Shown here piece by piece: positions 6,454 to 30,574 of a stretch of DNA of 64,000 nt (the stretch's first letter is position 1; every line of letters starts with the position of its first letter). The notes under the pieces were generated by a model. It saw only the letters and a program-made list of their open reading frames with translations, had not been told where the DNA came from and did no database searches. A program made the position numbers and the translations under genes. The DNA is from an uncultured Chloroflexia bacterium. GTDB taxonomy: Bacteria; Chloroflexota; Dehalococcoidia; GIF9; UBA5629. The DNA is taken from contig CAWHDI010000040.1 of assembly GCA_963827985.1 (NCBI GenBank), positions 16,682 to 80,681 on the forward strand, in the 5' to 3' direction.

Positions 6454-8463
6454 TCAGGCGTACTCATGCTTGTCCCAGGGCTGCCGTTCTCCGCGTTGCA
6501 ATGCCGTTTCCATCCTTGCCAGACCGGCCTTAAGCTTGGCAACCTCGTCCGATTTGAAATCAGAGTTCTTGAAAGCCTGATAGAGGATTGCTCCTTCCGT
6601 CTGTGCTGGTAAAGGCAAGTCCATCAGGTAACAAATGGTCGGCACAATGTCCACCAGGTTGCAGGTCCGCTCCAGCCGGTAACCCTTTCTGATGCCGGGA
6701 CCTGTCAGTGTCAGCAGCGCCTTCAACGAACCAATTCCCCATTCGGCCGCCGGCAGTATATTGCCGTGCTGCCCCGAATACCATGGGTATATCGCGTAGA
6801 TCACATCGCCGACTCCATCGCCGTAAAGTCCCAGTATACGTGCATCTTGTTTCGATAAAGCCAGGGCAACCGGCCGTTTGCCAGTATTCGGATCGACATA
6901 GCTGAGTAAAGCATCGATTATCTGCTGTTGTACTTTCTGGTAATCTTGCGGTTCTACCACGCCCTCTGGGTCGCGGCCTTTTAGGTTGACATAAATATAC
7001 ATCGTGCGCTGCGGGAAGCATTTGGATTTATTGACATCAGGTTTTTGAAAACCCATTCTTATTTCTGCCATCAGCCCTTCTGCCCTTGAAGTAACTGGTA
7101 CGGCTGAAAGGTCCTGCTGTTCTTCGAGCACAGTGAGACCCGCAGGGACCAGTATCTTGAATGGATCGAATGGCGGGCCGTCGGGCACTGCCCCGTGGTC
7201 GGAAACGAGGATGAAAAGTGTATCCTTATCGCAGGACTCGATCAACTGCGCGAGCATCCTGTCCTGCGCCTCGTAAATCCTCAGGTGGGCGTCCCAGGCT
7301 GCCTTTCTTTTAGCTTCATCTTTAGTTAGTGCGGGGTCCATCTCGGTAAGTATCATGTGATAGGCCCAGTCCGGCGAATGGGCGTGCATGAAGAACAGGT
7401 CCCACACGTTCTTGCTTAAAAGCGCGGCCGCTGCATCAGCCAGCCATTTGGTATAGTAGTCATTTATTTCTACAAAAGTATCCAGGTCATACCATTCGAG
7501 TGCATAACCCAGTATGCCTCCCAGGTGGCCGATAATACCAGTCTCCGACTGGATCTGACTGGCAACCTCGGGCGGGTTGCTCCATCCTGAAGTGGTCCCG
7601 ATAGCGCTGACATATAAACGCAAGTTCTCAGCATCGTCGCTGAGTTCGACCAGTTTGCAGCGGAAGAAAGCCTCTTTCTCGGTACCATCTTGCATCTTAA
7701 TAAAAGTTGTTATACGGGGACTCCATTCCCCAACTGCAATGGTGCAGAAAACGTCTTTAAAATCCTTGGTCGGTGATAGTGTAACCCTGTCGTACCCGTT
7801 GTCACCCGACTGTCTGGCAAGCACGTACCAGGTGGTTTCGGCAGGTTTGACGACCGCATCCCTGAAATGCATCTTGGCCTCAAGTTCCAGCGGCTCAATT
7901 TCCTTGTTTGGCAGGTTGGCCCAGCCCTCGGCGGCTTTGAAGGTACTACGTATAGCCTGCGGGTATATACCGGTGGTTATCAATAAATTGCTGCACAGGT
8001 TCTCTCTGCCGGACATGCCGATTAGCCCGTCGCGGTTTTCGCCTACGGAGAGTCCGCTGCCGCCAACCATAATCCCGTTCTTCATTTTGGAAGGCCACGA
8101 ACCGGGGTAATTGAATACGATACACTTCTTTCCGGCCTTATCGGCGGCGTCCCACAGGTACTCAGCCTTACAGCGTTCGCTGCTGAACGCTTGCACGGTG
8201 TTCCAGTTGTACGGAGTGGTTCCAGGGTTATGGACATGAAAATCTGTTATGCCGTGCGTTCCCGGCCATGTGCCCGTGGCAATCGAAGCCCAGTTGGGTG
8301 GGGTGATAGTGGGATATGGAACAAGGCAATTATCTGCCATAACACCTCCCTCTATCAGTTTCTTAAACGTGGGCAGATGGCCCTCAGTGACATGTTTCTC
8401 AATCAGGGCTGGCAATGCGCAGTCCAGTCCTATAACAGCTACTTTTTTCGGTACGTTAGCCAT
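6454..8463 (-). CDS. Alkaline-phosphatase-superfamily type I phosphodiesterase/nucleotide pyrophosphatase family protein
   Basis: Intact 669-aa ORF with N-terminal KKVAVIGLDCALP and the ...LVSDHGA... metal-binding region typical of the AP/phosphodiesterase fold. Confidence 0.85.
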   Translation of the reverse strand: MANVPKKVAVIGLDCALPALIEKHVTEGHLPTFKKLIEGGVMADNCLVPYPTITPPNWASIATGTWPGTHGITDFHVHNPGTTPYNWNTVQAFSSERCKAEYLWDAADKAGKKCIVFNYPGSWPSKMKNGIMVGGSGLSVGENRDGLIGMSGRENLCSNLLITTGIYPQAIRSTFKAAEGWANLPNKEIEPLELEAKMHFRDAVVKPAETTWYVLARQSGDNGYDRVTLSPTKDFKDVFCTIAVGEWSPRITTFIKMQDGTEKEAFFRCKLVELSDDAENLRLYVSAIGTTSGWSNPPEVASQIQSETGIIGHLGGILGYALEWYDLDTFVEINDYYTKWLADAAAALLSKNVWDLFFMHAHSPDWAYHMILTEMDPALTKDEAKRKAAWDAHLRIYEAQDRMLAQLIESCDKDTLFILVSDHGAVPDGPPFDPFKILVPAGLTVLEEQQDLSAVPVTSRAEGLMAEIRMGFQKPDVNKSKCFPQRTMYIYVNLKGRDPEGVVEPQDYQKVQQQIIDALLSYVDPNTGKRPVALALSKQDARILGLYGDGVGDVIYAIYPWYSGQHGNILPAAEWGIGSLKALLTLTGPGIRKGYRLERTCNLVDIVPTICYLMDLPLPAQTEGAILYQAFKNSDFKSDEVAKLKAGLARMETALQRGERQPWDKHEYA

Positions 8464-8518: not shown

Positions 8519-9820
8519 TTATTTTTCGGCCATTAAGGTTTCGTCTACACCGGCGCTCTCCTGAAAATAGAATTTCGGCAAGATTAGATAGGCCAGCACT
8601 CCCAGGACTGAAATGGCCAGCATATACATCAGGCCGGTCTGGATCCCATGTGCGCCTCCGCCGGCGCTGTCCGATATGGTCCCAACCAGGATCGGTCCCA
8701 GTGTCGCTCCCGTGAACGAGCATATGAAGTTGGCCATGCCGATTGCGGTCACGCGGACGTTTATTGGCGTGACATCATTTAACACCGCTAGCGATGCAGG
8801 CAGTATCATGCCGTAAGTAATAGTCATGGCGACCAGTCCGATGATGAAGGAAATAAAAGACACATCTAGCAGGTACAAGGTGATAAAACCAGTCAAAAGG
8901 TTAACAAACAGCGTTAGGGCAATAAAATAGGGACGCCCGTTTTTATTGTGCTTTTGCCATTTGTCCGCCAGCCACCCGCCAAGCGGTCCGGCTATTATTA
9001 CTACAAGCGCTGTTGCGCCATAGGTTAAGCCAGCCGTCATAGTCGTCATGTTGAAAGCTCTTATCAGGAGGGTTGGCATCCATGCCGGAAAGGCGAAGGC
9101 GGTGAAATAAAACAGCGCCTGGCCGGCAATGCTTATCCAGAATGCCTTAATCTTGAAAAGCTCAACGCAGCTTTTAAGATATCTTTTGCTGAGCAATCCT
9201 TCTCCGGCCTGTTTTATAGTTTTATAGTCCGGGAGGAAAAAGGCAATGATCGCCAGTATTATTCCGGGTATCGCAAATATGTAGAACGGGGTACGCCAGT
9301 CATGCGTAGTCGTGATCAGCCATCCTCCCAGTATTAACCCGATAATTCCGCCGACATTACCTCCCACCCAGAAAATCCCCATGATCAGTGACCGGACCTC
9401 TTTTTCGAAAGACAGCGAAATCCAGCTTAAACCAACGGGAGCATATCCAGCTTCACCACTGCCGACGAAAAAACGGGCAACCAGCAGGTGCCACATCTGC
9501 GTGGCAATGCCTGTTGTAAAGGTGAAAACGCTCCAGATCAGTGCCATGATGCCGATCACCTTACGGCGGGCCCACCTGTCACCCAGGATGGACACCGGTA
9601 TCGTGAGGATGGCAATGCCCAGCGTGAACAATCCTGGCAGGCTTCCGGCCTGGGCGTCGGTGAGATTGAAGGCTGTCTTGATTGGCTGCAACCCGATCGT
9701 TAAGATTGACCTGTCGGCAAAATTGATCATGAAAAGCAGCGTAATCACGGTCAAAGCGGAAATCGCACCTGCTCCGCCAACCTTGAACTGTTTTTGCTCC
9801 ATTTCTGCCTCCTTCGTCAA
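8519..9820 (-). CDS. MFS transporter (paralog)
   Basis: 433-aa, 12-TM ORF, strongly similar to the 54178-55497 and 5071-6376 products. Confidence 0.85.
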   Translation of the reverse strand: MTKEAEMEQKQFKVGGAGAISALTVITLLFMINFADRSILTIGLQPIKTAFNLTDAQAGSLPGLFTLGIAILTIPVSILGDRWARRKVIGIMALIWSVFTFTTGIATQMWHLLVARFFVGSGEAGYAPVGLSWISLSFEKEVRSLIMGIFWVGGNVGGIIGLILGGWLITTTHDWRTPFYIFAIPGIILAIIAFFLPDYKTIKQAGEGLLSKRYLKSCVELFKIKAFWISIAGQALFYFTAFAFPAWMPTLLIRAFNMTTMTAGLTYGATALVVIIAGPLGGWLADKWQKHNKNGRPYFIALTLFVNLLTGFITLYLLDVSFISFIIGLVAMTITYGMILPASLAVLNDVTPINVRVTAIGMANFICSFTGATLGPILVGTISDSAGGGAHGIQTGLMYMLAISVLGVLAYLILPKFYFQESAGVDETLMAEK

Positions 9821-9887
9821 GAACTACTGCTTCTTAACTACTACCTCAATTAGTCAGGCGCATTCATGCTTGTCCCAGGGCTGGCGT

Positions 9888-11874
9888 TCACCGCGCTGTC
9901 AGCGCTGTCTCCATGCGGGCCAGGCCGTCCTTCAGCTTATTGATCTCCTTCGCCTTGAAATCAGGATCTTTGAATGCCTGATAGAGTACTGCGCCTTCGG
10001 CCTGGGCGGGCAGAGGCAAATCCATCAGGTAGCAGATAGTCGGCACGATGTCTATCAGGTTGCAGTTCCTTTCCAGCCTGTAAGCCTTTCTTAATGCTCG
10101 GCCCGTCAAACGTAAGGAGCCCTTTAAGGGAACCGGATCCCCACTCAGCGGCGGGCAGAATATTGCCATGCTGGCCCGCAAACCACGGATAGAGCGGCGT
10201 AAATAACGTCGCCCACCTGGTCGCCATAAAGGCCAAGGATGCGGGCATCGCGCCTGGACAGGGCCAGCGAGACGGGCCGCATGCCCGTGGCAGGATCGAC
10301 ATACATGAGCAGCGCATCTGATAATCTGCTGCTGCACCTTTTCGTAATCCGCCGGTTCCACTATTCCTTCCGGGTCGCGTCCCTTGAGGTTGATATAGAC
10401 ATACATGTGACCGCTGCGGGAAACACTTCGACTTATTGAGGTCCGGTATCTGGCTGCCACGCGGATTCCCTCCACCAGACTGGCCTCGCGGTATCCCTGT
10501 CGGGCTGCCGCATCTTCTTTGCTAGTCAGCATTGCAGCCAGGCCGGCCGTCTGACCAGGATCTTGAATGGATCGAATGGCTGCTCGTCTGCCCTACGCGC
10601 ACCGTGGTCTGAGACCAGAATAACAAGCGTGTCTTTGTCGAGAGTCTTCAGTATCTGCTCCAGCATCCTGTCCTGCGCCTCGTATATCCTGAGGTGTGCA
10701 TCCCAGGCTGCCTTGCGTCTGGCTCCGTCTTTTGTCATTTCGTCATCCATAGCCGTCAGTATCATGTGGTAGGCCCAGTCAGGGGAATGGGCGTGCATGA
10801 AGAACAGGTTCCATTCATGTCCGCTCAGCAGAATGCTGGCGCAGTCGGCCAGGTATTGTGTGTAATAATTCGTTTATTTCGGTGAAGGTATCCAGGCCGT
10901 ACCATTGGAAGATATACCGATGATACCGTCCGGTGTGCCGAAGACGCCCTCCCTGATGGATTTCTGAGGCTATCTCCGGCGGGTTGCTCCAGCCGGAGGT
11001 CGTCCCCATCGCGCTGATGTAAAGGCGAAGGTTCTCGGCGTCGTCGGATAGCTCGATCAGTTTGCAGCGGAAGAGACATCCCTCTTCACTGTGCCGTCAG
11101 CCATTTTGATCGGTGGTTATACCTGGGGGCTCCATTCGCCTACGGAAAGCGTGCAAAATGCGTCCTGAAAATCCTTCGGTGGGGGACAGGGTTGCCTTAT
11201 CGTAGCCCGTTGACTCCCGTTTGCCTGGCCAGCACGTACCAGTGTTGTCTGCCGGCTTAACCTGCAGCGTGCCTGAAACGGATATTGGCTTCCAGTTCAA
11301 GCGGGTCCTTTTCCTTCTTCGGCAGATTGCTCCAGCCCTTTGCCGCCTGGAAGCGCCCTTTGTAGCCGCGGGTATATGCCTGTCGTTATGAAGATTTCAT
11401 CACACAGGTTAATGTAGTCGTGACATGCCAGTCAGGCCATCGCGGATCTCGCCAATGGAAAGCCCGCTGCCGCCCACCATGATGCCGTTTTTCATATGTG
11501 AGGGCCAGGAGCCCGGGTAGTTGAGTACGATACATTTCTTCCCGCCTTATCGGCTGCATCCCATAGGAACTCGGCCTTGCAGCGTTCGCTGCTGAAAGCC
11601 TGGACGATATTAGAGTTTCCAGGCGACTGGTGCCCGGCACGTGGACGTGAAAGTCGGTTATCCAGTGTGTCCCCGGCCATGCGCCCGTTGCAATCGACGC
11701 CCAGTTAGGTGGTGTAATAGTGGGATAAGGCACCAGGCAGTTATCGGCGATGACACCGCCTTCGATGAGTTTCTTAAACGTTGGAAGGTGTCCCTCTGAT
11801 ATGTGTTTCTCAATCAGGTGGGGCTCTGCGCAGTCAAGGCCGATGACTGCCACTTTCTTGGGTGTATTTGCCAT
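9888..11874 (-). pseudogene. Degraded paralog of the AP-family phosphodiesterase (at least 5 frameshifts)
   Basis: ORF fragments 11386-11874 (N-terminus MANTPKKVAVIGLDCAEP, near-identical to the 6454-8463 product), 10526-10798 (middle) and 9888-10532 (C-terminus) are colinear with the intact copy but lie in different frames. Confidence 0.75.
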
Positions 11875-12040
11875 TGTATTCTCCTTCTATAAAATTGCTT
11901 GCTCTACGGGCTCTGCACGGGTTTGCGAAGCTCCACCCGCAAAATTTTCCCAAGCAGGTTCTTTGGCAAAGTATTGGTAAACTCTACGTGTTTGGGTACC
12001 TTAAAATGGAGGAAGGTATTGCTTGGAAAACTCGATGATA

Positions 12041-26913: not shown

Positions 26914-27700
26914 CCGGCACGTTTACAAGCAAGGAAACGTTTCAATATCCGGATCCAACGACGGGTAAACTGTGTCCCCAATAACTAGCCGGGCTTCGTC
27001 ACGGGGCGTTTTAAACTCGAATCCAACGACGGATTTCTTGACCTGTAAGTGTCTGGTTTGGTCGCCAAAGGTCATTTTAATGCCATAGATGTACGCCCAT
27101 AGATGATCGGTCATAATAACTTTTGGAATCCTGCCAGTACGCTGATAGGCTTCTTTTAGAATGTCCTGCACGTCCTCTACCCTCTTGGTCGGGGATAATT
27201 TGGATGCGATAAGAAAACGGGTTTTTACGTCTATCACGTCCAATAGCCAGTAATCTTTTCCACCTATGTTAATTACAGTTTCATCCGCAAGCCACACGTA
27301 CCCGACTTCGGGCTCGCATCGGTTTGTTACGTTGACAGTACCTTTTGTGAATTGTGAAATCCAACTATATACACCATAATCCGACACGTCCATGTCGTAC
27401 AGTTGCCGTAGTTCTTGCCGGATGCTATTAACTGACATTCCCCTGTAATGCATCGAAATCGATGCAGCGATGGCATTTATAGAGGTTTTCATGTGTTCCA
27501 GTGTGTCTTTGGTATTAAACCTGTGATTACATGAATGGCCAAGGAAATATTGTTCACCTGTATTTGTTCCGTCTTTTACAACATCCGTGGAATTGCAGTA
27601 TTTACAGGTAATCGGTTTAGCTTCCATATAGTCCATATTTTCAGTCTAACAATAAGAGACTCCAAGTGGCAATAGTTTTGAGTTTGACTGCACTGGTATA
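26900..27700 (-). mobile_element. IS1-like insertion sequence (ends not defined)
   Basis: Transposase CDS of IS1 size. I could not identify terminal inverted repeats by eye. GC is intermediate between the host and the adjacent AT-rich island. Confidence 0.4.
26923..27636 (-). CDS. IS1-family transposase (single-ORF InsAB-type, Zn-finger + DDE)
   Basis: 237 aa. N-terminal CKYCNSTDVV...GHSCNHRF zinc finger, then DDE-like YVWLADETVINIGGKDYWLLDVIDVKTRFLIAS...IMTDHLWAYIYG. The size matches fused IS1 InsAB (~232 aa). Confidence 0.65.
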   Translation of the reverse strand: MDYMEAKPITCKYCNSTDVVKDGTNTGEQYFLGHSCNHRFNTKDTLEHMKTSINAIAASISMHYRGMSVNSIRQELRQLYDMDVSDYGVYSWISQFTKGTVNVTNRCEPEVGYVWLADETVINIGGKDYWLLDVIDVKTRFLIASKLSPTKRVEDVQDILKEAYQRTGRIPKVIMTDHLWAYIYGIKMTFGDQTRHLQVKKSVVGFEFKTPRDEARLVIGDTVYPSLDPDIETFPCL

Positions 27701-27744
27701 CTGGTTTTGATTACCCAATGCATTTATCAAAGAGGTAACTCAGT

Positions 27745-28320
27745 ATGGGAACGAATAATAATAGAAAACAGAATTCGCTTATTGATGAAACTAAAAGTCT
27801 TTGTGCAATCGGAAGAGGGGTAATACTGACCAATGCCACATGGATAGAGAATCTATTGACCTCAATTATTGCAGATTGCTTTGAGCCTACTGATAAAGAC
27901 AATTCCAGTATGGGGTTTGAAATCCCACTTACCGATAAGGCTATAGCATTAAAAGGAATAATTCTAAAAAGAATGGATTTCCGTGATAAGATAGAAGTAT
28001 TTACAGAGTGCGTTCAAGTGGCGAACCCGACAGTTTATAAGGACAATCTGCCGCTAATTAAGTGTATTACTAAGGAACTGAACACACTTCGAGAATTTCG
28101 CAATTTGCTTGCACATTCACCAGCCGATTGGTCATGGACTCAGGATAACCATATTTTCACAATATCACAGTACAAAAAGGAGCTATGCAAACTCTCAAAA
28201 TCGATGAAGACCGATTGGAATCAGAAATTAACAGGGGGGCTAAGGTGTGGGCACTCTTACTTCAGCTATGGCATCTTATCAATATCAGACCTGAATACGC
28301 CCAAATCTATGCTAAACTGA
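27745..28320 (+). CDS. HEPN-domain protein (Abi/Swt1-like Rx4H motif), putative RNase
   Basis: 191 aa, AT-rich. Helical protein carrying LREFRNLLAHSP, i.e. R-N-x3-H (Rx4-6H), the catalytic signature of HEPN RNases of abortive-infection and TA systems. Confidence 0.55.
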   Translation: MGTNNNRKQNSLIDETKSLCAIGRGVILTNATWIENLLTSIIADCFEPTDKDNSSMGFEIPLTDKAIALKGIILKRMDFRDKIEVFTECVQVANPTVYKDNLPLIKCITKELNTLREFRNLLAHSPADWSWTQDNHIFTISQYKKELCKLSKSMKTDWNQKLTGGLRCGHSYFSYGILSISDLNTPKSMLN

Positions 28321-28401
28321 GTACAGTAACAAGGGCACAACATCATGAATGGTTTAAAAATATTCGTTCCCCACAAAAATAGGAACTACAAACTCGTAAA
28401 A

Positions 28402-29301
28402 TCAATCAAATAAATCTAACTGTTCCCCGCCAGATATTACCTCTATTACTTTCACCACTTCATAGCTGGTTTTTAATACTTCGCCCGCATAATCATAATG
28501 ATGTGTTTCCTTTAATAGCACGTGTATCGCATCCCCCGGTTCGATTTTAACCCTTCTAGCTTGAAACTCAGCAAGCCATTCCTTGTCACTTATCATGGCA
28601 AGAAAATTCCGTTTCTCTTGTCGTAATTCCCATTGAGACTCACCGAGATAGTCAGGCTTCTTCACCTTAACTATTTGCTCGGTTTCATTTTCTATACGTT
28701 TGCTTTCAAGTAATTCATCTATTGACTCAGGAGCCATGTTGAACTCAAGGTTGAATTCGGCCTTGTCCACACTCGTAATATAGGATGCCTTATCCCCCGG
28801 CAATAAAAGTTTCGTACCCTCCGATATCCTCTGGATACCCTCCAATAAAGCACGGGGTTGGATTGGTTCATAGTCATCAAGCCAACGTACTTTTGTCTCG
28901 TGCGCCGCAACGTCAATTTGTCCTATCAACGGTTTTAAATCTGAGATGCTAGTAATTCGTACCTTGCCATCTAAGAAATTAATCATCAGGAATTTGGCTT
29001 TTACTAAGAATTGGCCAACTATGGGTTTCCACTCCAGATTGTAAAGAGCATCATCTGGAATTGCACGGAGCAAGTTGCTGAACCATGTTCTAAGAGAACC
29101 AGCTTCTATATCTTCCAATAGAAGAACTGGCTCTATTTTATTATCGATGACACCTACCAGTGACTTATCAATAAATTGAAATGTCTCTATTAGGTCATGT
29201 GTGACTTGGAATATTCGAGATGGCCTCTCAGATTTCTTTAAGAAATCTATTTCCAAGCGAAAATCCGCTTTTGGGATTTGCATTTTGCCCCATTTTATCA
29301 T
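28402..29301 (-). CDS. Hypothetical 299-aa protein (no recognisable domain), second gene of a two-gene AT-rich operon
   Basis: Clean ORF 45 nt downstream of the proteasome-like gene on the same strand. Codon composition is AT-rich like its neighbours. Confidence 0.6.
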   Translation of the reverse strand: MIKWGKMQIPKADFRLEIDFLKKSERPSRIFQVTHDLIETFQFIDKSLVGVIDNKIEPVLLLEDIEAGSLRTWFSNLLRAIPDDALYNLEWKPIVGQFLVKAKFLMINFLDGKVRITSISDLKPLIGQIDVAAHETKVRWLDDYEPIQPRALLEGIQRISEGTKLLLPGDKASYITSVDKAEFNLEFNMAPESIDELLESKRIENETEQIVKVKKPDYLGESQWELRQEKRNFLAMISDKEWLAEFQARRVKIEPGDAIHVLLKETHHYDYAGEVLKTSYEVVKVIEVISGGEQLDLFD

Positions 29302-29346
29302 CTACGAACCACCAATATCAAAATGCTCGTTGACGACAAATTATTC

Positions 29347-30126
29347 TTATGGTTTGCATATCCAGTCTGATATACGTTTGAAACCAATTCTTTTCTCAAT
29401 TCCAGTTTGTATTTCTTTGATCTCGGGTTGGTCAACTAACTTGAATCCTTCGTGTTCCGTTATAGTAGCCATCTGTATATCACCACCTATATAAGGAACA
29501 TATGAACAGGTTTCGGTTATTGCCATTATTACAATCCGTTTAAGTGACTCAATGGGAAGTTCGCTATTAGCCAAGCTCTTTTGCAAGCCTAGCCTTTTGA
29601 ACCAGTACTCACAAATAATGCCTTTTCCATGTATACGATAGCCTATTACTTTATCTGGTACCATCGGTAAGCCCCCATGAGCAGGTAATTCAACACAGAT
29701 TACACTTGGTTTATCTTCTTCATATCCACATATAAGCATGTTCAGATTAAAACCACGAATCAATGTCCTAACAACTTCATCCCCAAGACCTTTGATTCTT
29801 TTCAGTGCATCGTCCTGAACAATTTGTATATATTCTATGTATAGTTCTCTAAAATTTGCCGAAGGCATAAGCTTGGATTTTCTAGCCATCTCGTCAATTA
29901 ACCATTTACGATAGCCTTCTTGCGATCCTATTGACGTGCAGCCGACATTCTCCGTAATTTGCCAAAGCTTTTGTGAATAATCATTAAATCCAGTAAAAAT
30001 CTCGCCTGTATCCGTGAGACTCAACCTGCTATCTGTAGCCAAAACTATCCCATCTATCCCGATAAAAGCCATTGCAATACTCATTGATGTATCCCTCCCA
30101 CAACTAAAATGTCTGTCATATCGCAT
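29347..30126 (-). CDS. Proteasome beta-subunit/HslV-like Ntn-hydrolase family protein
   Basis: Near-N-terminal MSIAMAFIGIDGIVLATDSRLS...SQKLWQITENVGCTSIGS matches the proteasome-beta/HslV core (GxDGVVLAADTR...K(I/L)F.I...G.AG). 259 aa. The true start may be a downstream Met, leaving a short propeptide. Confidence 0.55.
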   Translation of the reverse strand: MRYDRHFSCGRDTSMSIAMAFIGIDGIVLATDSRLSLTDTGEIFTGFNDYSQKLWQITENVGCTSIGSQEGYRKWLIDEMARKSKLMPSANFRELYIEYIQIVQDDALKRIKGLGDEVVRTLIRGFNLNMLICGYEEDKPSVICVELPAHGGLPMVPDKVIGYRIHGKGIICEYWFKRLGLQKSLANSELPIESLKRIVIMAITETCSYVPYIGGDIQMATITEHEGFKLVDQPEIKEIQTGIEKRIGFKRISDWICKP

Positions 30127-30574
30127 TTTATCATGGGTATCAAGAAGCCAAGAGAATCCGTTATCATTTTTTTTCGTCCTCCAATGCTCTATAATTTGGG
30201 ATCATTTTCCTCTCGAGATATAATAGAACCCCTTTGGGAGAGGGCAGGGTGAGGGTAAAACACTGGTATAATAACCCTCATGTCAAAACTTGTTCTCGAT
30301 CTCCACGACATATTTAATAAAGGCTGGAGCATCGATGCTGAGCTCAACAGGATCGTAACTGAAGCTGTAGCAAAAAGATTACCCTGGTTGAGATTATTCC
30401 TGGCAAAGGCTCCGGCCAACTGAAAAAGCGTGTTTTACGCTTTCTCGCTCAACCTGACATAAAGAAGCTCTACCACCGGGTTGAAAAAGACGACAAGAAC
30501 TTCGGCAGAATTTTTATCCATTTCCGCTTCTGAAACCGGACCTCAAATTGCAGATTGCACCCGGTGAAGGATAC

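Follow-up and report, generated by a model that had tools for sequence, protein, structure and literature searches.

The window, a 64,000-nucleotide stretch of a contig from an uncultured Chloroflexia bacterium, contains a 3.3-kb insert that stands out by its GC content (0.39-0.44 vs ~0.52). At one end of this insert lies a gene for a proteasome-like Ntn hydrolase, and at the other a shortened transposase gene. Between these two, a gene for a 299-residue protein of the LAPAL family and an open reading frame of 191 codons are lodged. The coordinates of these genes, and of the signals that precede the protease gene, are collected in Table 1; other loci are referred to by our labels (L002, L010 and so on).

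Table 1. Features of the low-GC insert and of the 5' region of the protease gene, in window positions.
Feature	Positions	Strand	Basis and remarks
Low-GC insert, decayed transposon remnant	26918..30247	.	3.3 kb; GC profile, blastn against L021
IS6/IS240-type transposase, 3'-truncated, N-terminal zinc ribbon	26923..27636	-	237 aa; relatives have 332-373 aa
191-aa open reading frame	27745..28320	+	Opposite strand, between LAPAL gene and transposase; also annotated on the identical contig L001
LAPAL-family/PDC-S42-like gene, 299 aa	28402..29301	-	Independent cassette lodged in the element; NCBIfam, PADLOC, other contexts
Proteasome-like Ntn hydrolase, corrected coding sequence	29347..30084	-	245 aa plus stop, begins MSIAMAFIGIDGIVLATDSR; open reading frame, public protein, conserved residues, fold
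14 extra codons of the 259-aa frame, MRYDRHFSCGRDTS	30085..30126	-	Probable 5' UTR/promoter; overlap with -10 box, Shine-Dalgarno sequence inside, starts of relatives
Shine-Dalgarno sequence GGGAGGGA	30092..30099	-	Spacing of 7 nt to the ATG at 30084; kept in L010, L002 and L006
Extended -10 box TGATAAAAT	30125..30133	-	Overlaps the ATG of the long frame; alignment with relatives, consensus match only
IS6-family-type left inverted repeat (IRL) GGTTCTATTATATCTCGAGAGG	30209..30230	-	Pattern match; 146 nt ahead of the start codon

The long open reading frame reported in the preliminary description is intact, running without interruption over positions 29347..30126 of the minus strand and encoding 259 amino acids. 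Its first residues, which had been taken for a Ser/Thr-rich N-terminus, are however unlikely to belong to the protein. Conservation among homologues upstream of Met15 is found at the level of DNA and consists of an extended -10 box, with the equivalents TGATAGAAT, TGGTAGAAT and TGATACAAT in relatives, and of the Shine-Dalgarno sequence. A public protein of 245 residues (P0001) is identical to the window protein from Met15 on, and most relatives begin exactly with Met-Ser or Met-Thr. Because of these three observations, the stretch MRYDRHFSCGRDTS is very probably untranslated. A cleavable propeptide ahead of a Ser or Thr nucleophile, which had been suggested as a point to check, was considered and ruled out on account of the -10 box and the Shine-Dalgarno sequence that occupy the upstream DNA.

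The corrected gene encodes a stand-alone, 245-residue member of the proteasome (T1) Ntn-hydrolase superfamily. The Pfam profile PF00227 matches the protein with an E-value of 2e-4 and 21.5-21.7 bits, just missing the gathering score of 22.4, and it matches 37 of 50 relatives at E < 0.01, the best of them at 1.2e-9. TIGR03634 returned an E-value of 2e-5 with 24 bits (cut-off 224), and a profile of the family, when compared with PDB sequences, matched the beta subunit of M. jannaschii with an E-value of 1.7e-6. Together, these three matches place the resemblance to proteasome subunits well beyond chance. All scores against curated NCBIfam families lie far under their cut-offs, for close and distant members alike, and the protease matched no defence model in PADLOC. 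An AF2 model of the window protein (pLDDT 84, pTM 0.86) displays the four-layer alpha-beta-beta-alpha sandwich that characterizes MEROPS T1 and PF00227, and a Foldseek search with this model identified the beta subunit of T. acidophilum (E 2.4e-11). Both the fold anticipated in the preliminary description and the motifs quoted there (the nucleophile region, GxDGxVLAxD and a Lys33-like lysine) are present in the protein.

The catalytic residues of proteasome beta subunits can be located in the sequence. Ser2, the predicted mature Ser1, is in register with Thr1, and Asp18, 16 residues further on, corresponds to Asp17; Lys39 and Gly53 are the equivalents of Lys33 and Gly47. In an alignment of 50 members sharing 20-55% identity, Asp18 and Lys39 are invariant, and Met1 and Ser2 are at least 90% conserved; Ser2, Asp18, Lys39 and Gly48 are all invariant among the eight closest. 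Gly53 is largely conserved. No such conservation is seen at the counterparts of Ser129, Asp166 and Ser169, which vary (K154, V/P and I), so that activity is not guaranteed. Glu191 in helix H4 is invariant and might stand in for the missing supporting residues of the active site. The model also contains an extra helix after H2, formed by residues 102-111.

The insert can be delimited by comparison with L021, a related genome in which blastn reveals an HD-domain gene in place of the insert and synteny that ends at position 30248. The same syntenic genome carries genes labelled by Pfam as GcpE/IspG, an RseP-type M50 protein and GerE-type regulators, which point to a bacterial origin. The transposase of the window (Pfam rve, E 9e-11; DDE_Tnp_IS240, E 3e-6) has a reading frame that stops at the synteny breakpoint, and pairwise identity among the transposases of the window, L010 and L002 is 46-52%. 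Three matches to the IRL pattern occur in the 64 kb where 1.5 are expected, which is not significant by itself; the repeat in front of the protease gene gains its weight from its position at the synteny breakpoint and from its conservation in other loci. No right inverted repeat (IRR) was found in the window, where the right end of the element is lost; since only the left repeat is present, the mobility of this copy cannot be shown. The protease gene is probably a passenger just inside the IRL of an IS6-family (IS240-type) element that has decayed here, and the unrelated LAPAL cassette and the 191-aa frame now lie between cargo and transposase. These observations support the placement of the protease gene in horizontally acquired DNA, in agreement with the mobile-island setting described before. 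We recognised no AAA+ ATPase, alpha subunit, ATP-grasp, transglutaminase or alpha-E gene near the protease gene (18-36 kb; the frames at 18-26 kb were inspected only visually, and Pfam labels were taken from the syntenic flank), which likewise agrees with the earlier account. That account had overlooked the transposase as the conserved neighbour, and the location of the gene within the inverted repeats of an insertion sequence.

Homologous contigs include an intact element of the same type. In L002, a 2.7-kb IS6-type element is enclosed by an IRL (GGTACTGCTAGGTTTTAGTTGAT) and an IRR (GGTTCTCCTAGCTTTTGGTTGAT) of 23 nt each and bordered on both sides by the 8-bp direct repeat CCTGAAAG, a target-site duplication; duplications of 8 bp and GG tips are typical of IS6 elements (PMC7986276). 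The element holds a proteasome-like gene, a DDE_Tnp_IS240 transposase (E 1.7e-19) and a 127-aa open reading frame, and no internal IRL was found inside it. The transposase comes after the proteasome-like gene in both L002 and L010, and the spacing between IRL and gene is confined to 122-159 nt across four loci (the window, L010, L002 and L006).

Other relatives are carried by transposons of a different kind, and the clade thus rides in intact elements of two unrelated families, IS6-type and IS1595-type. The transposases of L017, L030, L036 and L019 contain the IS1595 Pfam domains PF12762 and PF12760, and the IS1595-type elements with proteasome-like cargo measure ~2 kb. Inverted repeats of 31-35 nt enclose gene and transposase in L036 and L030. 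Those of L036 are 31 nt long and 87% complementary, and are accompanied by the 8-bp duplication ATATATTA; L030 has no clean duplication, and in L017 and L019 the repeats are weak or hard to define. The core shared by the repeats turns up again at the right end of L017 and, in L008/L009 and L040, upstream of the gene. A second insertion-sequence copy in L030, close to the extra repeat motif, was considered and discarded, as no transposase is present at that site. In L032, a copy without transposase is enclosed by inverted repeats, and in L018/L027 the homologue lies between housekeeping genes, again without a transposase.

These elements also reveal a much higher rate of divergence in the cargo than in the transposase. 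From the stop codon of the cargo gene to the right terminus, L017 and L036 agree at 75% of nucleotides, whereas identity between the two cargo proteins is only 26%, and DNA-level conservation in the cargo gene persists only in its first 54 nt, which code for the active site. Family representatives with E < 1e-10 number 161. Searches of viral and plasmid collections gave no further relatives: tblastn found no homologue in INPHARED phages or PLSDB plasmids, IMG/VR returned none with either the family pattern or the protein of the prophage-like L041, and a PHROG search of L006, a contig whose small frames give it a virus-like look, produced no matches.

Stand-alone prokaryotic proteasome homologues have been described before by Fuchs, Alva & Lupas (PMC8665760, 2021). 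Orphan homologues in bacteria are numerous, and in this only survey of them they come without a genomic context that hints at function; no context is reported and transposons are never mentioned. The window protein shares many traits with the WPH/PHI-type 'group II' of that study, whose members are likewise stand-alone proteins of ~240 residues without propeptide, with a Thr1/Ser1-Asp17-Lys33 triad, C-terminal H5-type helices, and neither an AAA+ partner nor an informative operon. It also shares with WPH and group II an equal resemblance to alpha and beta subunits. The likeness to the WPH/PHI/PMI clusters (representatives include WP_040339656.1 and WP_012956871.1) is one of traits, namely similarity to both subunit types, the helix after H2 and the lack of a propeptide, and not of clustering. 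Compared to the published homologues, the window gene is distinguished by being insertion-sequence cargo, and its close clade by having a Ser instead of a Thr nucleophile and by its concentration in Chloroflexota/Dehalococcoidales MAGs, as seen in part from a contig search with the alignment of the eight closest members. We found no literature report of a transposon-cargo context for proteasome homologues.

Among characterized systems, the archaeal and actinobacterial 20S beta subunits are the best match to the window protein in both fold and sequence, with the same sandwich architecture, the nucleophile at position 1, Asp17, Lys33, the Gly47 region and an 'AGYD' motif. The window protein is nevertheless not a canonical 20S beta subunit. 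It reaches 24 of the 224 bits of TIGR03634, it has no alpha-subunit gene nearby, no ATPase and no propeptide, and it differs in the Ser for Thr exchange, the lack of conservation at Ser129, Asp166 and Ser169, and the additional helices behind H2 and at the C-terminal end. As in HslV and CodW, the nucleophile would be exposed by removal of the initiator Met alone, and Bacillus CodW also uses an N-terminal Ser; an adjacent hslU AAA+ gene and the compact subunit of ~175 residues that mark HslV are, however, both absent here. Anbu is set apart by its partners, as no ATP-grasp, transglutaminase-like or alpha-E genes were recognised at the window gene or at those homologues whose flanks were examined, and no Anbu chain appears among the 60 best PDB sequence-profile matches.

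We consider it probable that the protein is a stand-alone Ntn hydrolase with a Met-Ser start, likely active, that is carried as the passenger of an insertion sequence. Transcription would start at the gene's own conserved extended -10 promoter, and translation at the Met-Ser codons. Methionine aminopeptidase may then strip the Met and leave Ser1 as the N-terminal nucleophile, an exposure that would make a propeptide and autoprocessing unnecessary. The catalytic core would be composed of Ser1, Asp17 and Lys33 with a Gly47-type oxyanion position, and because this core is retained, the protein is most likely active, as a hydrolase of amide or peptide bonds that does without a dedicated ATPase. 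A more ambitious proposal, which we regard as tentative and rather unlikely, makes the protease a working part of transposon biology. In this view the transposon would encode a Ser1 protease that needs no ATP and shares with the transposase a transcript started at the left-end promoter. Its substrate would be a specific target that changes quickly, such as the transposase itself, a host factor restraining transposition, or a defence protein of host or phage. This proposal would explain why the gene is retained in two unrelated insertion-sequence families, why it survives as a transposase-less cassette, and why its body changes so much more rapidly than the neighbouring transposase while the N-terminus with the active site stays fixed.

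An inactive scaffold or regulator of proteasome fold, alpha-like or akin to an inactive beta subunit and with an N-terminus conserved for assembly, appears unlikely. Subunits of these types lose Thr1, Asp17 and Lys33, whereas in the 50-member family the equivalents of the latter two are invariant and the exact N-terminal Met-Ser/Thr is preserved to at least 90%; the part of the cargo gene that alone remains conserved as DNA is, moreover, the part that codes for the active site. It is improbable, but in line with several observations, that the fold serves a non-degradative purpose such as sequence-specific transpeptidation or ligation, or the cleavage of one defined target (a transposase, host factor or phage protein). 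Connectase (PMC7980362, PMC8665760) offers a precedent for such a reaction on a proteasome fold, and one family member matches the connectase N-terminal domain weakly (E 1e-3). The combination of a fixed active site with a rapidly evolving body would fit a specific target that changes, and the helix of residues 102-111 occupies a site at which, according to Fuchs et al. (PMC8665760), ring formation may be blocked.

The preliminary description had pointed to the 299-aa gene, which lies at 28402..29301 downstream of the protease gene, as a possible functional partner. A two-gene system, in which the protease processes or activates its neighbour or the two form an effector pair, could draw on the shared orientation of the genes, the 45 nt that separate them, and the match of the 299-aa protein to the defence-candidate model PDC-S42 (PADLOC, E 9e-10), which covers only the C-terminal 100 residues. 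It could also draw on the setting of a homologue in L015, which has a restriction-modification methylase on one side and an nSTAND NTPase on the other. NCBIfam assigns the protein to the LAPAL family (NF053583, 86.3 bits, above the cut-off of 60), and AF2 predicts a helical N-terminal domain followed by an OB-like C-terminal domain. This family comprises at least 255 clusters. A LAPAL neighbour is absent, however, from all other proteasome-like loci examined, and the LAPAL homologues in L012/L013 (80% identical), L014 and L015 are found without a proteasome-like gene. For lack of co-occurrence the two-gene system is largely refuted, and we judge it highly improbable. DNA similarity between the window and L012/L013 is restricted to positions 28400-29325 and ends at the borders of the LAPAL gene, so that this gene behaves as a discrete cassette, and a promoter-like site precedes it. 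The 299-aa gene is a separate cassette, neither conserved partner nor operon mate of the protease. Profile searches found no family for the adjacent 191-aa frame.

Finally, it is barely credible that the transposases are incidental neighbours at a hotspot of recombination or insertion, as the variety of mobile-element genes nearby (IS6-, IS1595- and IS3-type transposases, a tyrosine recombinase) and the lack of any such gene in L018/L027 might suggest: this is contradicted by the target-site duplications of L002 and L036, which lie outside both cargo and transposase, and further opposed by the absence of an internal IRL in L002, the constant spacing between IRL and gene in four loci, and the transposase-less copy with flanking inverted repeats.

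The passenger role of this clade in two insertion-sequence families, with mobilisation proven by target-site duplications, provides the first reproducible context for orphan proteasome homologues and brings a protease into the so far short list of insertion-sequence passenger genes. It makes tractable experiments on Ser1 and on transposition possible. For annotation, the start codon of the protease gene is corrected and two adjacent, unrelated cassettes are separated. The finding also extends the IS6 family, for which a single passenger-carrying element had been recorded. This element, ISDsp3 of Dehalococcoides sp. BAV1, is the sole transporter insertion sequence (tIS), as elements with passenger genes are called, listed for the family, and its passenger is termed 'hypothetical' (PMC7986276). 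ISDsp3 resembles the IS6-type elements described here, L002 above all, in its IS6/IS240-type zinc-ribbon transposase, GG-tipped repeats, 8-bp duplication and a passenger inside the repeats, and its host likewise belongs to the Dehalococcoidia. With a length of 1,456 bp and a transposase of 319 residues, it is unlikely to be the same element, being too short for a 245-aa cargo. The IS6-type element with the proteasome-like gene is larger, at 2.7 kb, and the cargo it carries is found again in elements of the IS1595 type.

The proteasome-like gene lies within the boundaries of insertion sequences (ISs), with target duplications in two element types, and it is this context as IS cargo that makes the gene noteworthy. 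In a Chloroflexi MAG (L002-L005, homologue P0005) and in L010 (P0003), it is followed, in the same orientation, by a zinc-ribbon IS240-type transposase, of which the window holds a related copy. The transposases of the window, L002 and L010 share 46-52% mutual identity, comparable to the 34-49% found among their proteasome-like neighbours. In L002, the left and right terminal inverted repeats (IRL and IRR) bracket the gene, the transposase and a 127-aa ORF, and no second IRL was found between cargo and transposase. An 8-bp direct repeat, CCTGAAAG, stands on both sides of the element; GG tips and 8-bp duplications are the signature of the IS6 family (PMC7986276). The insertion site is the loop of a palindrome (GGACAGA-CCTGAAAG-TCTGTCC; flanks 7525-7577 and 10278-10292). 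At 30 nt upstream there is a comparable hairpin, GGGACAGGTCTTTAGACCTGTCC, possibly a REP-like repeat serving as target. In intact IS6-type elements, cargo and transposase may share a transcript from the left end.

The IRL of L002 also precedes the start codon by 122-159 nt in L010 (179-200), in L006 (8962-8983) and in the window. L006 is a 14-kb contig (1-14060) that carries P0004 with this IS6-type repeat among ~30 tightly packed small ORFs, for which no Pfam or PHROG match was obtained except for one methyltransferase; its architecture is virus- or plasmid-like in appearance.

Features of the window and of the L002 element
Feature	Sequence	Position	Strand	Remarks
IS6-type transposase copy	window	26923-27636		3'-truncated; from Pfam domains and sequence comparison
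191-aa ORF	window	27745-28320	plus	
299-aa LAPAL / PDC-S42-like gene	window	28402..29301	minus	starts 45 nt downstream of proteasome-like gene
Proteasome-like gene, long ORF	window	29347..30126	minus	259 aa, intact
Proteasome-like gene, corrected CDS	window	29347..30084	minus	from public protein, DNA conservation and relatives' starts
IRL	window	30230→30209	minus	GGTTCTATTATATCTCGAGAGG
Smr-domain gene	window	30280-30534	plus	frameshifted: 47-aa ORF, remainder in another frame; directly outside IS left end
IRL	L002	7578-7600		GGTACTGCTAGGTTTTAGTTGAT, 23 nt
IRR	L002	10255-10277		reverse complement GGTTCTCCTAGCTTTTGGTTGAT

The copy in the window occupies a low-GC patch at 26-30 kb (0.39-0.44, versus about 0.50-0.55 elsewhere in the window). 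A blastn comparison with the related genome L021 (GCA_040961665.1) revealed synteny on both sides of the insert, on the left through an aldehyde dehydrogenase and the Smr-domain gene to position 30248, and on the right, from 26917 downward, across a 130-aa gene and one for a surface protein. L021 contains an HD-domain gene between these flanks, and the window contains 3.3 kb of low-GC DNA there. The left breakpoint lies 17 nt outside the start of the IRL, the right one coincides with the end of the transposase ORF and no IRR was found in the window, which argues for a decayed, passenger-carrying IS6-type element. This element has retained its IRL, promoter and intact cargo gene and lost its right end; it has also taken up the LAPAL cassette and the 191-aa ORF, which stand between cargo and transposase. 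The 191-aa ORF returned no match in Pfam, NCBIfam, PHROGs or PADLOC; its segment ...LREFRNLLAHS... holds an R-x4-H motif, which we take to be reminiscent of HEPN RNase active sites. When its frameshift is repaired, the translated Smr gene matches Pfam Smr with an E-value of 1.5e-12, and L021 13646-13933 is 81% identical to this stretch. The intergenic stretch bounded by the Smr gene and the DUF5752-like 130-aa gene (window 26918-30247; L021 13934-15468) holds an IS remnant in one genome and an HD/HD_5-domain gene in the other, and such unlike cargo at the same place in two related genomes suggests a hotspot of insertion or replacement.

A second type of element carries the gene in L017, L030, L036 and L019; there, a convergent transposase bearing the Pfam domains DDE_Tnp_IS1595 and Zn_ribbon_IS1595 comes next. 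In L036, 31-nt inverted repeats (87% complementary) surround gene and transposase, and if 5790 and 7782 are taken as the termini, ATATATTA stands on both sides as an 8-bp duplicate. The repeat core, GCAATTATCCCTYRACAACAGGGA, is also present at the element ends of L030 and L017 and, in L008/L009 and L040, ahead of the gene. In L008 (10001-11357), a convergent IS3-type transposase (HTH_21/rve/rve_3) overlaps P0008 (200 aa) and cuts it short at the 3' end; P0008 still has this motif upstream. In L032 (1-1260), the gene has an IS6-type IRL-like sequence on one side and an IRR on the other, in a cassette of ~1 kb without transposase, and it belongs to the L017/P0006 subclade, carried elsewhere by IS1595-type elements; the cargo therefore seems mobile between IS frameworks. 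The reading frame in L032 may be degenerate. In L030, a 380-aa ORF (9683-10825), judged TnpB-like by eye on its N-terminal sequence, and a solitary IS1595-type repeat motif (12003-12026) are found 2-4 kb downstream of the cargo-carrying element.

Other surroundings are more varied. A tyrosine recombinase lies upstream of the gene in L007/L028, and no mobile gene was found nearby in L018/L027. On the 408-kb contig of L041 (4451-10474), a distant MT-type relative (24% identity) is flanked by terminase-like (Terminase_6C, E 3e-4, below the cut-off) and portal-like (P22_portal, at the cut-off) genes and is possibly prophage-borne; no relatives were found in IMG/VR.

L017 and L036 are 74.6% identical in nucleotide sequence over the stretch that begins at the cargo stop codon, spans the transposase and reaches the right terminus; within the cargo gene, only the first 54 nt, encoding the active-site N-terminus, can be aligned. 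Identity is 76% between the transposases and 26% between the cargo proteins. On these alignments, the cargo would either be evolving much faster or have been exchanged among elements.

The preliminary description had proposed a proteasome-type Ntn-hydrolase fold, and the structural comparison bears this out. The window protein matches Pfam Proteasome with E 2e-4 (21.5 bits; gathering score 22.4) and the archaeal beta model TIGR03634 with E 2e-5 (24 bits; cut-off 224). As a single-sequence query against PDB sequences it reached only E 0.15, versus 1.7e-6 for the M. jannaschii beta subunit and 2.6e-6 for an alpha-5 subunit with a profile of the eight closest homologues; to judge by these searches, the resemblance is genuine, though distant. 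An AF2 model built from the 8-sequence alignment (mean pLDDT 84.3, pTM 0.86) returned the T. acidophilum beta subunit as top Foldseek hit in the PDB (E 2.4e-11, TM 0.72), with Anbu at E 1e-9. In the fold comparison, 20S alpha and beta subunits gave values of 20-21, Anbu 19.3, HslV 15.1, Connectase 13.7 and BPH 13.4; within the superfamily, the protein stands closer to 20S/Anbu than to HslV/BPH. The model adds to the canonical beta-subunit architecture a helix after H2 (residues 102-111, of lower confidence) and two C-terminal helices.

The Ser/Thr1-Asp17-Lys33 core is conserved: Ser2 precedes Asp18 by exactly 16 residues, which keeps the Thr1-Asp17 register, and Lys39 and Gly53 align with Lys33 and Gly47. 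The positions aligned with Ser129, Asp166 and Ser169 of 20S beta are not conserved in the family. All of 50 members sharing 20-55% identity with the query have D18, K39 and E191, and conservation is ≥90% at M1, S2, G9, G12, S19, L40, G120, Y121 and Y160. A word-indexed search of 5.8 billion clusters returned only 8 clusters of this family, and an exhaustive profile search 485 representatives below E 1e-3 (161 below 1e-10, 46 below 1e-30); no curated Pfam or NCBIfam model reached threshold for close or distant members. Genome matches came from Chloroflexi/Dehalococcoidales MAGs, one alphaproteobacterial MAG and, more distantly, one Bathyarchaeota MAG.

The Ser/Thr-rich N-terminus noted previously, with its candidate propeptide, did not hold up. 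The identical public protein (P0001) has 245 aa, the first of which is Met15 in the numbering of the long ORF. For several homologues the called ORF is longer, with an N-terminal extension that seems conserved as protein (…GRD[DT]SMSIA…). Aligned as DNA, the homologues retain an extended -10 box (TGATAAAAT, TGATAGAAT, TGGTAGAAT or TGATACAAT) and a Shine-Dalgarno sequence, GGGAGGGA, 7-9 nt ahead of the Met-Ser ATG. In the window, the long ORF's ATG overlaps with the -10 box (30125-30133) and is therefore probably absent from the mRNA. Since most relatives in the exhaustive search also start exactly at M-S or M-T (MS in close members, MT in more distant ones), the gene begins at Met-Ser behind its own promoter and Shine-Dalgarno sequence, and the supposed N-terminus is very probably an untranslated 5' UTR or promoter. 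Methionine aminopeptidase prefers a small second residue, so removal of the initiator Met would expose Ser1 as nucleophile. The protein may then be an active, ATPase-independent amide or peptide hydrolase.

A stand-alone proteasome homologue is as such of a known kind. Fuchs, Alva & Lupas (2021) described 22 new families of prokaryotic proteasome homologues, which have the conserved triad, lack AAA+ partners and, beta and HslV aside, carry no propeptide; some are spread by phages, transposons go unmentioned, and there were "no genomic contexts… suggestive of a specific function" (PMC8665760). By character, the window family is like their WPH/PHI-type group II in resembling both alpha and beta and in its helical insertion after H1/H2. 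The IS6 review lists one passenger-carrying member only, ISDsp3 of Dehalococcoides BAV1, with a "hypothetical" passenger; this element measures 1,456 bp and encodes a 319-aa transposase, which leaves too little room for the proteasome-like gene. Full-text literature searches returned no paper tying IS passenger genes to proteasome homologues. That such a homologue, fixed in its active-site N-terminus and hyper-divergent in its body, recurs as cargo in two IS families appears undescribed so far.

The 299-aa neighbour had been suggested as a partner, which its distribution contradicts. It matches NCBIfam NF053583 ("LAPAL motif-containing putative phage structural protein"; 86 bits versus 60), and its C-terminal 100 residues match the PADLOC candidate PDC-S42. 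Its AF2 model (pLDDT 85) combines a helical N-terminal domain with an OB-fold-like C-terminal domain, for which the best Foldseek hits, SSB and the LysRS N-domain, reached only E 1e-2. With at least 255 clusters, the family is a large one; its members come from Chloroflexota, Deltaproteobacteria, Ignavibacteriae, Cyanobacteria and Bacteroidota. The gene is absent from every other proteasome-like locus examined, and no proteasome-like neighbour was found beside the 80%-identical copies in L012 and L013, or in L014, where it adjoins HTH_17 genes and a transposase. DNA similarity to L012/L013 is limited to 28400-29325, so the gene acts as a discrete cassette, a widespread one of a single gene. 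The label "putative phage structural protein" does not obviously suit these contexts. In L015 (4668-5582), likewise without proteasome-like neighbour, the gene is flanked by an N6_Mtase/Methylase_S restriction-modification methylase and a Metallophos-nSTAND NTPase, surroundings that resemble a defence island.
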